The notes: generated by a model from the sequence alone, not told the origin. DNA of 64,000 bases from an uncultured Acidobacteriota bacterium (GCA_963777605.1 CAVZRV010000031.1:320001-384000), one strand, 5' to 3'. Counted from the stretch's first letter, positions 6,234 through 16,200 are shown. Program-made: numbers and translations.

Positions 6234-6883
6234 TCAAACCAGGCCGGGGACGATCAGAAAAAACAGGACCACAACCAACCCAACTGCAACCGCAAATATC
6301 CCGGTGACACCCGTTCTCGCCGCCCTGCAGCGATCCATAGATAGAACCCGCTCAAGGCCCAGAAAATGAGTGCGGCGGAAAGCAGATCCATGGTGGCCGT
6401 CCACGCGCTGGTTACAATCCAGTCGCGCTCTCGGCCACCGTTCTCGAGATCAACCCCGTTGAAGGTGTGAAGCATGGAGACGAGTCCGAAACTATCCGTC
6501 GACGTTTCGTCGATCTCGACAAGTCCGGCGGCCTTATCAATCACGATCCGCGTAATGAAAGCCGGGCGGGCGACGGTGAGGCTATACCCGTCTGTGTTTG
6601 AGGACCAGGAGATCGACTCGAGTTCACCGGATATGCCCAACGCATTCATGAGCTCCACGGCGCGATCTTCGTCCTTTGCGGCCGTCAACTCCGGCAGGGG
6701 GACTCGGCGGTGGGTGGTTGTTCTCCTCCCCCAGAACTGGGATATCTGCCACTGGGGATGATTCAACATCAAGCCCGAGAACACAAAGATCCAAAGTTCC
6801 GCGAGCAGAAAGAGACCAACCAGGTAATGAAACCGCCTGGCCTGAACGAACAGTTTGCGAGAGCTCTTGATTGCCATGATCAA
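6234..6883 (-). CDS. PepSY-associated TM helix protein (C-terminal frameshift near 6310)
   Basis: HYLVGLF..SGLMLNH, MLHTF, DL..ALSGFYLW. The final TM helix VTGIFAVAVGLVVVLFFLIVPGLV* lies in the adjacent frame. Confidence 0.75.
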
Positions 6884-6886
6884 AGG

Positions 6887-7561
6887 TCATCCGAGCATCA
6901 GGACGAGGAGTACGTTCAGCGCCACTATTCCGAGAAACGCGAAGACGAGGCCGAGCCTCCTTTCACCAGGCAGACGAATCCAGAGGTAGATCCCGGTGAA
7001 AGACAGTAGGAAGACGCCGACCACCGAAAAATCGGTCACGTCCCGCCAGATTTTCAAAACCCACCAGTTGCCTCGAATTGACGCAACGTGGGGACCGGGC
7101 CGTTTGTGAAGGTATAGGATCCGGTCCAGTGCAGAGATTTTCCGTGTCAGGATTCGCGCCTTCCGATTCCTGGTGTCAACCCGAATCTCTATCCGCTGGG
7201 TCGGCTTCGACATCATCACCAGGACCTCTGCCTGCGCCGGACGCTTCTGGATCCAGTCCACCTCACCGTCGACTCCGGCCTGGGCCGCTACGGCCTGCGC
7301 CAATGGGAGACCGTCGAGGTCGGGCACGGTCAGGTTGGATACCGTTCTGACTCGAGGCTCATCAACCGTTTGCGACTCACCTGGATGGTTCAGGATGAGT
7401 GTGCTGAGGGCAAAAACAAGAAGAACAGGCGCCAGCACCAAACCCAAATGACGATGGACTCGAAGAGACCAGATTCGGACAAAACTGCGCACACCCGGTT
7501 GACTCAAATCGATTCCAGTATTGGATGCTCCGAAACTCGCCGACCCCGACGGACATTGCAC
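6887..7561 (-). CDS. PepSY-associated TM helix protein (start uncertain)
   Basis: HRHLGL..STLILNH, LHKRPGPH, TGIYLW; paralog of the downstream gene. Confidence 0.75.
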   Translation of the reverse strand: MQCPSGSASFGASNTGIDLSQPGVRSFVRIWSLRVHRHLGLVLAPVLLVFALSTLILNHPGESQTVDEPRVRTVSNLTVPDLDGLPLAQAVAAQAGVDGEVDWIQKRPAQAEVLVMMSKPTQRIEIRVDTRNRKARILTRKISALDRILYLHKRPGPHVASIRGNWWVLKIWRDVTDFSVVGVFLLSFTGIYLWIRLPGERRLGLVFAFLGIVALNVLLVLMLG

Positions 7562-7603
7562 GCAGTTAGCGCGTCGTGGATCCGCAACCCAGGGCTGAAC
7601 AAC

Positions 7604-8326
7604 TTACTTCGACGCGACCACTTCAGCTCCGAGAACCCTTGGGTTCTTGGAGCGAGCGTTTCGAAACGTCCTCAGCAGTCGAGCCTCGCGGAAGCCGGCT
7701 CGTTTGAACTCTTCGAGGAAGGCTCCGCCTTCCCTGGCACCGGCGATTCAGGAGAACCAGTTTTCCGGTGCTGCCTCCACGGGAGCGGATGCCCCGTCTA
7801 TTGCGATCAACTCCGCCGCGAATACCTGTCCACCCGGCTTGACGACCCGGCCCAGTTCACGAAAGATACTGCTTCGATCCAGGTTCAGGTTGAAGATCCC
7901 GTTGACGAGAACCACGTCCACGGATTCGCTCGCGATCGGAAGAGATTCCGCGTCACCCGCCAGAAAATCCAGGTTCTGAATCCCAAGATCCTGCGCCGAA
8001 GCCCCTGCCTTGCGAACCATCGCCCTGCTGAAGTCGAGTCCAATTACGTGCCCCCCGGGACCAACCCTGCCAGCGGTCACGAAGGAATCCAGGCCCGCTC
8101 CGCATCCCAGATCCAGCACCGTCGAACATTCACTGATTTCAGCGACGATCGCGATATTGGAGACTCCTGTGAACGAAGCCTTTACCTGGTCAGGCAAGGC
8201 ATCAAGAACCTCCTGCGGATACCCAACGCTCGCCGCAAACCATTCTCCGCAGGGAAACGGCTGCTTCTTCGAGGGCTCGTCCGCTACCTCGGAATAAACG
8301 TCTCTGACTTGTTGTCGAATGCTCAT
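7604..8326 (-). CDS. ArsM-fold SAM methyltransferase, probable selenoprotein (UGA at 7748-7750 read as Sec)
   Basis: VLDLGCGAGLD SAM motif. Reading through TGA gives NWFS-U-IAGA..FLEEFKRAGF..VVASK* (47 more codons to TAA at 7604), aligning with the ArsM C-IAGA..AGF segment. A hairpin follows the UGA. Confidence 0.85.
7714..7750 (-). promoter_or_regulatory. Bacterial SECIS-like stem-loop
   Basis: UGA-AUCGCCGGUGCCAG-GGAAGGC-GGA-GCCUUCC: a 7-bp stem whose G-starting apical loop lies 21 nt after the UGA. Confidence 0.7.
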
Positions 8327-8872
8327 TCCCTTTGTCACGACTTTCGAAACACGCACACTCCCAGTGAGCTGAAATTCAGAACTGGATGATCGGTGAATTG
8401 GGACCACCGATTGGATCAGTTTAACAAACAGATCTAAATCACACGCTGCAGGAGACAGACCACGCCGTCTCGAAACTCCGGCCTGGGACAGAAAACATGA
8501 CCTGCTGCGAAGTCAACCTGGCGGAGTCATCGTCAGAGCCCCTTCGCACCGCGCCGCAAAGAGATCATTCAGAGGGCGAAGCTGACTACCCTCCCGTTCG
8601 ATTGCAAATGCCATTTCGCCCTCCGGGCTTTAGCCCCCAATCGTCCATCGTCGTCGTGGAACGCGGAAGCTTCTCCCTGAAACTCGAAGATCGGTACCAC
8701 GCGGCTCCCGATACTGAACTCACCACTCCCCTAGAAGAAGGCAGGTGTTCAACCCCAGAATCCTCTAGGTTCTCCAGTTCATCCGAACCGAAGTTCCAGA
8801 GGGACCACGGAAGCACAACCCTGTTGGATTTGCTGGTGAACATTGCTGCATATCCAACAGTGCCTCCTTGAC

Positions 8873-11670: not shown

Positions 11671-13240
11671 ATGAAGAAAGGAATTCTGATCGGCTTGCTG
11701 TCGTTCCTGCTGGGAATCACGGCGGCTGTGGTCATATTACTGAACCCGATGGGCTGGTCCTGGGCCGGCAGTGCCCATCACTACGTGCTGGCCGCACTGC
11801 AAAAGGTGGAACCCGCCGGAGCCGAAGGAGAATCCGGACAACTCTACACCTGCGGCATGCACCCCCAGGTCATCCAGGACCATCCGGGGACCTGCCCCAT
11901 CTGCGGAATGGACCTCATCCCCCTGAAGTCGTCGACCGGCGGCGCCGGGGCCGCAGCCGAGAAAACCGAGTCGTCCGGCGAGCGGAAGATCCTTTACTAC
12001 CGCGCACCGATGGACCCGACCTACACCTCGGACAAACCGGGCAAGTCCCCTATGGGGATGGACCTGGTCCCGGTCTACGCCGATGAGCAAGGTGCTGAAG
12101 AGCCGAAGAACACAGTCCACATCGACCCCTCGTTCGTCCAGACGATCGGGGTCCAGACCGCGGTGGTCAAACGCCAGGACATCCCCTACACGGTCCGCAC
12201 GGTCGGCAACATCACCTACAACGACGAGCAACTCCACTGGGTCACCACCAAGTACGAGGGCTGGATCGAGAAGGTCTACGTCAACTACGTAGGGCGAGCC
12301 GGTCGAAAAGGGACAGAGGCTCTTCGAGATCTACAGCCCGCAACTGGTGACGACCCAGAAGGAGTACCTGGATGCCCTGGAGTACGCCGAGCGCCTGAGC
12401 ACCGGCGATTACGAGGACGTCAAGAGACGTGCACGGGCGCTCCTCGAGTCAACGCGGGAACGGCTTGCCTACTGGGATATCAGCGCCGAACAGATCGAAG
12501 ACCTGGAGAAAACTCGCAAACTCCGGCGAACCCTGACGGTCTTCTCGCCGACCGGGGGCCTGGTGGTCGAGAAGATGAACCAGTCGCTCGAGGGGATGTT
12601 CGTCAAACCCGGCATGAACCTCTACAAGATCGTCGATCTGTCGACCATCTGGGTTGAAGCAGAGGTCTTCGAGAACCAGATTCCCTGGCTGAAGATCGGG
12701 CAGTCGGCCCTGCTCGAGTTTCCCTATCAACCGGGGCGCAAGTACCGGGCCCGGGTGCGCTTCATCTACCCCTACTTCAACGACAAGACGAGGACGATGA
12801 AGCTCTCCCTGTCGCTGCCCAATCCCGGATTCGAGTTTCGCAAGGACATGTACGTGGACGTGACGTTCAACGTTCCGAGCGCCCACAACGTCATTGCGGT
12901 TCCGGATGAGGCGGTGATCTTCTCCGGCACCCGCAACCTGGTCGTGACCAGCGTCGGAGAGGGCGAGTTTCAGGTCAAGGAAGTGACCCTGGGCCTGCAC
13001 GGCGAGGGCCTGTACGAAGTCAAGGAGGGCCTCAAGGAAGGGGAGACCATCGTCACCTCATCCCAGTTCCTGATCGATTCGGAAAGCAGCCTGAAGGAGG
13101 CGATCCAGAAGCTGGTGGCAGTCCGGAAAACCGGACAGGCCGATTCAAAGGCCACCGGCCAGGAATCGCCTGAAACTTCCAAGGCTCCCATGAAGATGCC
13201 CATGCCGAAGGAAGAGCAGAAAACGCCGCAGCAGCGGTAA
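11671..13240 (+). CDS. cusB: CusB-like RND membrane fusion protein with metal-binding domains (frameshift near 12293)
   Basis: YTCGMHP..CPICGMDL; YYRAPMDP..PGKSPMGMDL; removing one G restores GEPVEKGQRLFEIYSP; SQFLIDSES. Confidence 0.88.
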
Positions 13241-13291: not shown

Positions 13292-16200
13292 ATGCTCGAA
13301 AAAATCATTGACTGGTCGATACGGAACAAGTTCTTCGTCATCCTCGCGACCCTTTTCGCAGTGCTGGCGGGCATCTATTCGATCCAGAACACGCCCGCTC
13401 GACGCCATTCCGGATCTGTCCGACGTCCAGGTCATCATCTACACCGATTATCCCGGCCAGGCCCCCCAGGTCGTCGAAGACCAGATCACCTACCCGATCA
13501 CGACCCAGATGCTGGCGGTGCCATTCGCGAAGGTGGTCCGCGGCTACTCCTTTTTCGGGTTCTCCTTCGTCTACATCATCTTCGAGGACGGAACCGACAT
13601 GTACTGGGCGCGCAGCCGGGTCCTGGAATACCTGAACTACGTTTCAGGACGGCTGCCCAAAGGGATTACCCCGTCACTCGGACCCGATGCCACCGGGGTG
13701 GGCTGGGCCTACATGTACGCCCTGAAGTCGAAGACCCGCAACCTGGCCGAACTGCGCAGCATCCAGGACTGGTTTCTGAAGTACGAGTTGACCTCGGTTG
13801 ACGGCGTCTCCGAGGTCGCCAGCATCGGCGGCTTCGTCAAGCAATACCAGATCACGGTCGATCCCAACAAACTGCGGGCCTACAACATTTCGATCTCCAA
13901 GATCCGCAACGCCGTCCAGCGGAGCAACAGCGACGTGGGCGGCCGGGTGCTGGAGATGGCCGAAACCGAGTTCATGATCCGGGGCCTGGGCTACATCGAA
14001 AACGCGGAGGACATCAAGGATATCGTCCTCGGCGTCGACCCCTCCGGGATCCCGATCCTGATGAGGGACGTCGCCATCGTCCAGATCGGCCCCGACATCC
14101 GCCGGGGCCTGGCCGAACTGGACGGTAAGGGGGAAACCGTTGGGGGGATCATCGTCGTTCGCTACGGCGCCAATGCGTACCAGGTCATCCAGGACGTCAA
14201 ACAGAAGATCGAGGATCTGAAACAGGGGCTGCCGAAAGACGTCGAGATCGTCCCGGTCTATGACCGGACCAACCTGATCGAGCGATCGGTTAGCACGCTG
14301 AAGGAGAAGCTGATCGAGGAGGGCCTGGCGGTTGCCCTGATCTGCATCCTCTTCCTGCTCCACTTCCGCTCCTCCCTGGTCGCCATCATCACGCTCCCGA
14401 TCGCCGTCCTGATGGCCTTCACCATCATGCACTACCAGGGCATCAACGCGAACATCATGTCGCTGGGGGGGATTGCCATCGCTGTGGGGGCCATGGTCGA
14501 TGCCGCCATCATCATGATCGAGAATGCCCACAAGCACCTCGAACAGGACCAGGGGAAGAAGGATCACTGGCAGATCATTGCCGATTCCGCCAAGGAAGTG
14601 GGCCCGACGCTGTTCTTCGCCCTCCTGGTCATCACCGTGTCCTTCGCCCCCGTCTTCACCCTGGAAGCCCAGGAAGGCCGTCTCTTCAAGCCCCTGGCCT
14701 ACACCAAGACTTACTCCATGGCGATGGCCTCGATTCTGGCGGTCACCATCGTGCCGGTGCTGATGGGCTACTGGATCCGGGGGAAGATCCGCTCGGAGGA
14801 ACGGAACCCGATCAGCCGGTTGCTGATTTGGATCTACGATCCGTTGCTTCACTTCATGCTCCGCTGGAAGTGGGTCGTCCTCCTGGTGGCGCTGTTAATC
14901 GTGGTCTCGATCTACATTCCCTACACCCATATCGGCTCGGAGTTCATGCCGCCGCTCTGGGAAGGGGACCTGCTCTACATGCCGACCACACTGCCCGGCA
15001 TTTCGATCACCAAGGCCCGAGAACTGCTCCAGCAGACCGACAAGATCATCGCGACGTTCCCCGAGGTGGAACGCGTCTTCGGCAAGGTCGGCCGGGCCGA
15101 CACGGCGACCGATCCCGCGCCCTTGTCCATGATTGAAACCACCATCACGCTCAAGCCCGAGGAGGAGTGGCGGCCGGGGATGACTCCGAAGAAACTGATC
15201 GCCGAGATGAACCAGGCCATCCAGTTCCCGGGCGTCACCAACGCCTGGACGATGCCCATCAAGACGCGCATCGACATGCTGTCGACCGGAATCAAGACAC
15301 CGGTCGGCATCAAGCTTTCAGGGCCGAATCTCCAGGTGTTGGAGGATGTCGGCAAGGAGGTTGAAGCCGTCGTCCGCAAGGTCCCCGGGACACTGTCGGT
15401 CTACGCGGAACGGGTCATGGGGGGCAACTTCCTCGACTTCGACATCGATCGGAAGGCGCTGGCCCGCTACGGTTTGACCGTGGGCGATGTCCAGGACGTG
15501 ATCCAGTCGGCTATCGGTGGGATGAACCTGACCACGACCGTGGAAGGACTGGAACGCTATCCGGTCAATCTCCGCTACAGCCGGGAACTGCGCGACAACA
15601 TCCAGGATCTGAAGGAGGTCCTGGTCGTCGACGCCCAACGGCGCCCAGGTGCCCCTCGGCTACCTGGCCAAAGTCGAGATCAAGAAGGGCGCTCCGTCGA
15701 TCAAGACCGAAAACTCGCGGCCCAATGCCTGGATCTACGTGGACATCTCCGACGTCGACGTCGGCACCTACGTCACCATGGCCCGTCGGGCCGTCGCCGA
15801 GCAGGTCCAGATCCCGGCCGGCTACAACCTGGTCTGGAGCGGACAGTTCGAGTACATGCAGCGGGCCCAGAAGCGCCTCATGTACGTGATTCCGATGACG
15901 CTGATGATCATCTTCGTCATCATCTATCTCAACACACAATCGGTGTTCGAAACCCTGATCGTCTTTCTCGCGGTGCCCTTCTCGCTGGTCGGGTGCATTC
16001 TGGTTCATCTGGCTATTGGGCTACGACATGAGTATCGCCGTCTGGGTGGGAATCATCGCGCTCGCAGGCCTTGACGCGGAGACTGGCGTGGTCATGCTCC
16101 TCTACCTGGACGTGGCTCACGAGAAGATGGTCAAGGAAGGTCGCATGAACTGGTTGCGGGACCTGGTCGAGGCCATCTACCACGGCGCCGTGCACCGGGT

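Follow-up and report, generated by a model that had tools for sequence, protein, structure and literature searches.

We found a very probable, genuine selenoprotein gene in a 64,000-nucleotide stretch of DNA (hereafter, the window) from an uncultured Acidobacteriota bacterium. The window is C31:320001-384000 of genome G000, and the gene lies at 7604..8326 on its minus strand. Judging from the comparisons described here, the in-frame UGA at codon 193 is almost certainly a selenocysteine (Sec) codon. The real product is predicted to be a 240-residue protein, whereas gene callers report a fragment of 192 residues. We regard it as quite probable, taking the explanation as a whole, that this protein is a Sec-decoded methyltransferase with the fold of the arsenite methyltransferase ArsM, whose chemistry and soft substrate we infer. 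An initial annotation of this DNA had proposed a hidden selenoprotein gene here, and the proposal is borne out by the conservation of the TGA and of the downstream frame in relatives, as well as by Sec machinery in the genome.

Starting from an ATG at 8326, the frame has 192 sense codons, the last of which are translated as ..PENWFS. After the TGA, 47 further sense codons (IAGAREGGAFLEEFKRAGF...VVASK; in full, IAGAREGGAFLEEFKRAGFREARLLRTFRNARSKNPRVLGAEVVASK) extend to a TAA at 7606..7604. The features on which the argument depends are as follows.

7604..8326, minus strand: complete coding sequence of the predicted selenoprotein methyltransferase, with ATG at 8326, 240 codons and TAA at 7606..7604
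7750..7748, minus strand: in-frame UGA, codon 193, the sole TGA in the frame; the resulting UIAG is a UxxG motif
7716..7734, minus strand: SECIS-like hairpin (selenocysteine insertion sequence), with an 8-bp stem and the 3-nt loop GGA (loop at 7724-7726), identified by folding and comparison
7607..7747, minus strand: the 47 post-Sec codons that gene callers lose, encoding one helix and the two final beta-strands of the methyltransferase core

The list of open reading frames (ORFs) made with translation table 11 closes the gene at NWFS (7748..8407). The initial annotation had described a caller that halts at NWFS and a frame that stays open for 47 more codons, and both its coordinates and its count are correct. 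The N-termini of family members align from residue 2-3 of the window protein. A second ORF of 339 codons, at 7370-8389 on the plus strand, is antisense to the methyltransferase gene and covers all of it. Similar antisense ORFs occur in 17 and 32 related loci, where they beat the truncated true ORF when the longest ORF is picked. Therefore, this artefact of G+C-rich DNA can mislead gene callers. The only DNA dataset matching the locus is a soil metagenome (share 0.24), two contigs of which cover 7303-7453 and 7793-7976, with the TGA outside both; no RNA datasets matching the locus are listed.

Homologs argue strongly for read-through. A scan for relatives, using one genome per prokaryotic species, gave at least 597 pattern matches, at least 523 of which encode a relative. 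We analyzed the best 80 of these at least 523 loci, whose products are 49-58% identical to the window protein and match it through residue 228-240. All 80 have a TGA at the equivalent of codon 193 (79 by the pattern and one, L046, by inspection). According to the record titles, the 80 loci span at least 10 phylum-level groups: they occur in Acidobacteriota, Nitrospirota, Planctomycetota, Chloroflexota, Verrucomicrobiota and Deltaproteobacteria/Syntrophorhabdus, as well as in Rokubacteria, Methylomirabilota, Gemmatimonadota, Binataceae and Myxococcota. In addition, a six-frame search of 61 related genomes, a set that includes the unpublished genome G018, found four orthologs of the same family (in G006, G009, G013 and G014). 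These are 52-54% identical to the window protein over residues 2-239, and each has exactly one in-frame TGA. All four read through as NWFA-U-[IV][AT]GA[RK][ED]GGAFL.EF..AGF...

The sequence beyond the TGA behaves as coding sequence. In 81 sequences (the 80 related loci and the window gene), the mean column entropy over 44 post-TGA codons is 0.70, 0.54 and 1.55 bits at codon positions 1, 2 and 3. The corresponding values for the 20 codons before the TGA are 1.19, 0.94 and 1.57, so the stretch after the TGA is the tighter one. This pattern over codon positions marks a downstream frame that is translated and under purifying selection. Moreover, the distance from the Sec codon to the end of the gene is exactly 47 codons in 70 of the 81 cases. 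Homologs that end at the site with no conservation downstream, which the initial annotation had named as evidence to the contrary, are thus not what we found: the TGA is kept in all 80 loci and in the four orthologs, with conserved coding sequence beyond it, and the frame is constrained in 81 sequences.

The genome has the machinery that Sec insertion needs, and a search for selA, selB, selC and selD found all of them. The selA (528 bits), selB (354 bits) and selD (363 bits) genes score above the curated cut-offs, and the tRNA-Sec (70.5 bits) is called by ARAGORN as tRNA-SeC with the anticodon TCA. The selD gene (C7:931111-932034, minus strand; L011) has an in-frame TGA of its own (..VKCAG-U-ASKL..), and so the selenophosphate synthetase of this genome is itself apparently a selenoprotein. 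Among the ortholog genomes, selA is present in three of four, and it was not found in the remaining one, G009, which is 91% complete. The gene occurs in 55 of the 61 related genomes, again counting G018, and co-occurrence with the Sec trait is therefore uninformative.

In the bSECISearch model, a bacterial SECIS element is a stem-loop located shortly 3′ of the UGA, with a G in its apical loop. The window has a hairpin of this type, GGGAAGGC-GGA-GCCUUCCU, at 7734..7716. Its stem starts 13 nt after the UGA and its loop lies 21 nt after the A of the UGA; the initial annotation had correctly described a GGAAGGC-type hairpin with this loop distance. As the folding energy is not significant, support for the hairpin is drawn from comparison. 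We used an ungapped 69-nt alignment of the 81 sequences, beginning at the TGA, in which the stem occupies columns 17-24 and 28-35. Within the stem, 89.8% of cells pair; sliding the 3′ partner by 1-3 columns lowers this share to 48-65%. Changes on both sides of a pair occur in four of the eight stem pairs (six cells), and the covariation score is matched by 2 of 500 shuffles. The first base of the loop (G25; the loop is GGN) is invariant in all 81 sequences.

Three points weaken the case for this hairpin. First, the hairpin on its own proves nothing: with z = -0.20, the 66-nt stretch has a folding energy that is nothing unusual in such G+C-rich DNA, and an equal or better fold was reached by 73 of 200 shuffles. 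Second, the covariation is modest, involving six cells only. Third, the stem also encodes the conserved KEGGAFL, and constraint on the protein may explain part of the conservation.

We now consider what the protein might do. Its Pfam matches are class I S-adenosylmethionine (SAM) methyltransferase domains, namely Methyltransf_31 (1.5e-26), Methyltransf_25 and Methyltransf_11. The four top NCBIfam models are all ArsM-type, and the window protein is under the cut-off of every one: NF047649, a methyltransferase/UXPK-star double selenoprotein (score 181.8, cut-off 460); NF041537, an ArsM/AhpD selenoprotein (177.8, cut-off 510); NF008823, arsenite methyltransferase (165.8, cut-off 263); and NF041536, an ArsM/DUF2284 selenoprotein (162.4, cut-off 575). 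We predicted the structure with AlphaFold2, using an alignment of 64 read-through homologs (mean pLDDT 90.5, pTM 0.90). In the model, the post-Sec residues form a helix (200-209) and two strands of the core sheet (214-221 and 231-239), such that a product of 192 residues would be without part of the fold. All 12 top Foldseek matches are ArsM or AS3MT proteins (TMq 0.64-0.72). Pfam and the fold matches agree on a class I SAM-binding fold with the N-terminal lid of ArsM, and the modelled protein has the two-domain ArsM/AS3MT fold.

Among solved structures, the best sequence matches are algal ArsMs (E about 5e-19). In the phmmer alignment to one of these, CmArsM (4fr0), U193 aligns with Cys224 (..GEC-LGGA), V55 of FTGVSN is opposite Cys72 of FYGCGS and G143 of VNGIFNL is opposite Cys174 of SNCVCNL. 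We take Cys72, Cys174 and Cys224 of CmArsM to be its As(III)-binding and catalytic cysteines, which fits the Protein Data Bank (PDB) titles of the Foldseek matches. Of this three-cysteine As(III) site, the window protein keeps only the third position, as Sec; the equivalents of Cys72 and Cys174 are Val and Gly across the whole clade. As far as the alignments can tell, Sec193 is the only conserved chalcogen residue of the window protein. The initial annotation had placed the UGA at the C-terminal Cys of ArsM and had noticed that two other ArsM Cys sites are replaced; both observations agree with the alignment, in which U193, within a UxxG motif, falls on Cys224.

This loss of cysteines and the use of Sec seem to go together. 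A profile search against 1.84 billion cluster representatives gave 1171 matches with E<=1e-30, the best 150 of which were realigned to the profile. This sample is biased by the query toward proteins with Asn-Gly at the Cys174 position (NG type). The 39 representatives of the canonical type, with Asn-Cys at this position, have Cys at the Sec site in 38 cases and a gap in one, and none ends there. The NG type has 105 representatives, of which 53 end exactly at the site and 32 have Cys; the others have G (three), R (one) or W (one) or are fragments (15). Six of the 150 representatives could not be classified. Because all 53 proteins that end at the site are NG-type, whereas 0 of 39 canonical proteins end there (among the best 150 of 1171), candidate Sec forms appear limited, in this sample, to the lineage that is without Cys72 and Cys174.

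The NG lineage has at least three Sec-using sub-clades. These are the window clade (GVSN/NGIFNLN/NWFA-U), a group ending in ..DWFR and a group with GxGNP/SNGVLNL/LWTG-U, whose read-through is confirmed in L029. The last of these is a second ArsM-like clade (FAGIGNP/SNGVLNL/LWTG-U-IAGA) with about 33% identity, in which the same site is an in-frame TGA and the frame stays open past it. Its members include L029 (G040:C502), G045:C12:1938-2603 and G014:C8:422928-423563, and genome G014 has both Sec clades. Counterparts with Cys instead of Sec are CmArsM, with its Cys224, and the 32 NG-type and 38 canonical representatives mentioned above. Another such protein, P0140, aligns gap-free over 238 residues at 39% identity, with a Cys opposite U193.

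With these data, a mechanism can be proposed. SelB and Sec-tRNA(Sec) would bind the hairpin 13 nt downstream of UGA193, leading to the insertion of Sec. The selenolate of this residue would then hold a soft, nucleophilic substrate beside the methyl group of SAM, and the substrate would be methylated. Going by the residues at the site, this substrate is probably not inorganic arsenite handled canonically, since the three-thiolate As(III) site could not be built from a single selenolate. The substrate is plausibly something other than arsenite, as the initial annotation had proposed. A different role also fits with the two canonical ArsM paralogs in the same genome, at C11:6398-6946 (minus strand) and C31:200778-201308 (plus strand). 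Both paralogs are all-Cys (GCGNP, SNCVINL, WIGCVAGA), with a Cys-rich N-terminus and no internal stop, and the one on C31 lies on the window's own contig, about 120 kb away.

It is nonetheless conceivable, if unlikely, that the protein is a working arsenite or methylarsenite methyltransferase, in which a single Sec, perhaps with glutathione-type thiols or Cys26, replaces the three-cysteine site. ArsM and AS3MT proteins are the best matches in both structure and sequence, the best NCBIfam models are ArsM-type, and the Sec occupies the position of the As-binding Cys224. Moreover, C26 of the window protein is opposite Cys44 of CmArsM. Genes for ArsR-family regulators adjoin the gene in several loci: plain ones in L046, L068 and L072, and ArsR-rhodanese fusions in L094, L108, L113 and L122 (4 of 80 loci). 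There is also one fusion to an aquaporin-type channel. However, all members of the clade have Val and Gly where ArsM has Cys72 and Cys174, nearly all relatives have Val in place of Cys26 and the score of 165.8 is below the 263 that NF008823 requires. Two canonical ArsM genes are already present in the genome, and no arsB, acr3 or arsC was seen among the 152 immediate neighbours scanned.

For the reading in which Sec binds another soft substrate, we tentatively suggest, by analogy with related fusion proteins, that sulfane sulfur or selenium carried on Sec or Cys may be what is methylated by SAM. Sulfane sulfur is handed from one cysteine to another by desulfurases, TusA and rhodanese, and selenocysteine is also a substrate of NifS-type enzymes. 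A persulfide carrier would supply the sulfane S or Se, which would be held as Sec-Se-S(e)- and, once methylated, would leave as a methylated chalcogenide. The suggestion is based on Cys-type relatives that are fused to a desulfurase or to TusA; the ArsR-rhodanese genes that adjoin the gene in 4 of 80 loci are a further hint. We found 13 longer homologs (421-2000 aa, E<=1e-20), six of which are fusions of roughly 645-650 aa with a PF00266 cysteine desulfurase, 39-42% identical over 93-99% of the query. P0140 is a seventh desulfurase fusion, whose N-terminal half scores 425 bits to NifS; the seven proteins are P0140, P0273-P0276, P0278 and P0279. Among 24 long relatives that were scanned, three have a C-terminal TusA (P0171, P0198, P0201) and two an N-terminal thioredoxin/DsbA-like domain (P0188, P0247). 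The other fusions in this set are to an ArsR helix-turn-helix domain (P0137), MerC (P0181) and CMD, with one each, and to DUF2652, with two.

A bolder version of this suggestion, which we hold to be more doubtful, is that a very widespread clade that uses Sec almost obligately, with at least 523 related loci in species-representative genomes, consists of persulfide or perselenide methyltransferases and not of arsenic enzymes. Sulfur or selenium would then pass from a desulfurase, TusA or a rhodanese-type carrier to the selenolate, where methylation by SAM would yield methanethiol or methylselenol. If true, soil bacteria would have a hitherto unrecognised way, dependent on selenium, to volatilise or detoxify sulfur or selenium.

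Several observations speak against a sulfur or selenium substrate, or against the window protein as a typical family member. The fusions to desulfurase, TusA and thioredoxin all sit in Cys-type sister clades, outside the window clade. Within the clade, a desulfurase, TusA or selD is found nearby in just 1 of 80 loci each. The neighbourhoods are rich in metal-related genes and heterogeneous, and fit a metal(loid) substrate equally well; we regard such a substrate as a serious if unlikely rival. The longer relative that is fused to an aquaporin-type channel also carries an acetyltransferase, which resembles an arsenic context. Finally, the window protein has Q22 and C26 (codons 22-26, window positions 8249-8263) where His and Val are found in over 90% of the family; that is, QPFPCG replaces the family's HPFPVG at two nearly invariant sites. 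In the family, His22 of this motif may serve as a second ligand.

The existing annotation of the family might be taken to mean that the TGA is a true stop, that the product is only 192 residues long or the gene a pseudogene, and that the downstream frame is open by chance. Public gene callers do end there. We examined the best 120 of 2159 database homologs with E<=1e-10, and 113 of these are proteins of 190-225 aa that cover 72-80% of the query and stop at the UGA. The window's own product is among them, and NCBI names the truncated members 'methyltransferase domain-containing protein'. The remaining seven homologs are longer; at the Sec site, three have C, two W and one R, and one homolog is frame-shifted. 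However, a true stop is very improbable in view of the TGA and the constrained downstream frame in 80 of 80 loci across phyla. Truncation would also strip the last two beta-strands from the core, and Cys-containing relatives run through the site to the same C-terminus. Public databases hold the family almost only as fragments of about 196 aa that are without two core strands, and no NCBIfam model rescues them.

TGA is the normal stop of 7 of the 13 other window genes, and it also serves as the true terminator of 20 of the 81 family genes, meaning that UGA would stand for both Sec and stop in the same mRNA. It follows that TGA is not reassigned genome-wide. The idea that the UGA is read as Trp, Cys or Gly through a reassigned code or a suppressor tRNA can draw on the W at the site in a few entries (P0006, P0007, P0266), but these are evidently products of TGA=W translation, and with full Sec machinery, an alignment to Cys, the usual partner of Sec, and a conserved hairpin at SECIS distance, we consider this idea hardly credible.

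Turning to the genomic context, two genes for membrane proteins follow the predicted selenoprotein gene.

6887..7561, minus strand: PepSY_TM-like membrane protein 1 (Pfam PF16357/PF03929, PepSY_TM_like_2, E 1.1e-7), 43 nt downstream of the methyltransferase gene
6254..6883, minus strand: PepSY_TM-like membrane protein 2 (Pfam PF16357, PepSY_TM_like_2, E 3.5e-8), directly after the first

No terminator-like site was found in the 43-nt gap between the methyltransferase gene and the first of these. Given the shared strand, the short gap and the lack of such a site, local co-transcription is possible. The co-transcription that the initial annotation had thought probable is consistent with this local arrangement, but a link at the level of the family is not: homologs of the PepSY-TM pair are near the gene in 0 of 84 loci. 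Specifically, tblastn (E<=1e-3) found no homologs of the PepSY-TM, YdjC, 164-aa ORF or DUF3347 proteins within about 6 kb in the 80 related and four ortholog loci, and the Pfam matches of the 152 immediate neighbours include no PepSY family. The association with the PepSY-TM pair is local and not a family trait.

The surroundings in the window include a heavy-metal P-type ATPase with HMBD and YHS domains on one side, and DUF3347, OEP, HlyD and ACR_tran efflux genes on the other. Two of the efflux ORFs look frame-shifted or interrupted. A CusB-like ORF (11671-12657, plus strand) matches HlyD_D23 only at positions 5-47 of 214, and its translation is of low complexity past about residue 220; the ACR_tran ORF (13308-16031, plus strand) matches positions 30-782 of the 1021 in the profile.

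For synteny in the family, we clustered 938 ORFs from the 81 loci and applied Pfam to 75 downstream and 77 upstream neighbours. Neither the clustering nor the Pfam analysis of these 152 neighbours yielded a conserved or dominant partner gene. The largest non-self clusters, which we rejected, consisted of antisense-ORF artefacts or, in one genus, of lineage-specific ABC genes of the phosphonate type. In 43 of 75 related loci, the downstream neighbour is on the opposite strand. Genes related to metal homeostasis occur among the neighbours (ZnuA, ZIP, two CDF, MerR, P-type ATPase, RND, OEP, Cu/Zn-SOD and YtkA), and other recurrent neighbours are divergent LysR genes (four loci), PNP_UDP_1 phosphorylases (five) and other methyltransferases (four). 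The single locus with selD close to the gene is L046 (5600-7834), from a Nitrospirota metagenome-assembled genome, in which an ArsR-family regulator and the Sec-methyltransferase are followed by a Sec-containing selD (SCAG-U-AAK).

Selenoproteins of this general kind are known. The entry 'Arsenite methyltransferase, NF008823, UxxG, 1 Sec, WP_011987699.1' stands in a recent review, which cites Fomenko et al. 2007 (Science) for the first report (PMC13188914), and an earlier review has the same family (PMC9312934). Peng et al. 2016 counted 41 proteins of this Sec-containing arsenite methyltransferase family in 39 organisms (PMC5029168). The fused families NF047649, NF041537 and NF041536 are attributed by the recent review to Haft & Tolstoy 2025 (PMC13188914). 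Therefore, the remark in the initial annotation that Sec-containing methyltransferases of the ArsM fold had already been reported was right. A literature search for ArsM-like sulfide or selenium methyltransferases turned up only the unrelated Mdd and TMT enzymes. MddH and MddM1/2 (PMC11445057, PMC12904073) are small cytosolic class I SAM methyltransferases that act on chalcogenides, and offer a functional analogy only. The accounts of these enzymes place them in the UbiE/UbiG families, not the ArsM-like one, and mention neither Sec nor a catalytic Cys. The mddH gene is described as sitting among multicopper-oxidase and metal-resistance genes (PMC11445057), a setting that resembles the copper-efflux region around the window gene.

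Canonical ArsM and AS3MT enzymes (CmArsM, 4fr0/4fs8/6cx6; CrArsM, 5evj; human AS3MT, 8xt7) superpose on the window protein in their N-terminal and SAM/As-binding domains, at 24-27% identity. The window protein shares with them a DLGCGxG SAM motif and a reactive residue at the Cys224 position. Unlike them, it has Val, Gly and Sec at the positions of Cys72, Cys174 and Cys224, and it is without the C-terminal third domain (240 aa, compared with about 320-380). Of the three ArsM ligands, a single one remains in the clade, as Sec, and canonical ArsM occurs alongside it, and so counting this Cys-poor clade as 'arsM' in surveys of arsenic cycling is probably wrong. A testable lead to a new methylation substrate comes from the clade's near-exclusive reliance on Sec and from relatives that are fused to sulfur-relay proteins.

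Closest in kind are the published Sec-containing families. The Sec-containing arsenite methyltransferase family (NF008823/PRK11873) has in common with the window protein its fold, the UxxG position of Sec, a bacterial SECIS downstream and truncation by gene callers at the UGA. It differs in that the window protein scores below its cut-off and is without the Cys72 and Cys174 equivalents, although published lists of Sec-containing ArsM proteins may already contain this Cys72/Cys174-less clade. The fused selenoproteins of NF047649, NF041537 and NF041536 have the same UxxG Sec site in their methyltransferase domain. Compared with NF047649, the window protein has a single Sec and no C-terminal UXPK motif, ending in VVASK-TAA, and compared with NF041537 and NF041536, it is a protein of 240 aa without a fused AhpD or DUF2284 domain bearing further Sec. 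By its profile scores, active-site residues and domain content, the predicted protein falls outside arsenite methyltransferase proper and the three curated fused families. It belongs to the broad Sec-containing ArsM-like group, and ArsM-like selenoproteins as such are not new. The value of the finding is accordingly that of a corrected annotation and a lead to a non-arsenic substrate, rather than a new principle.

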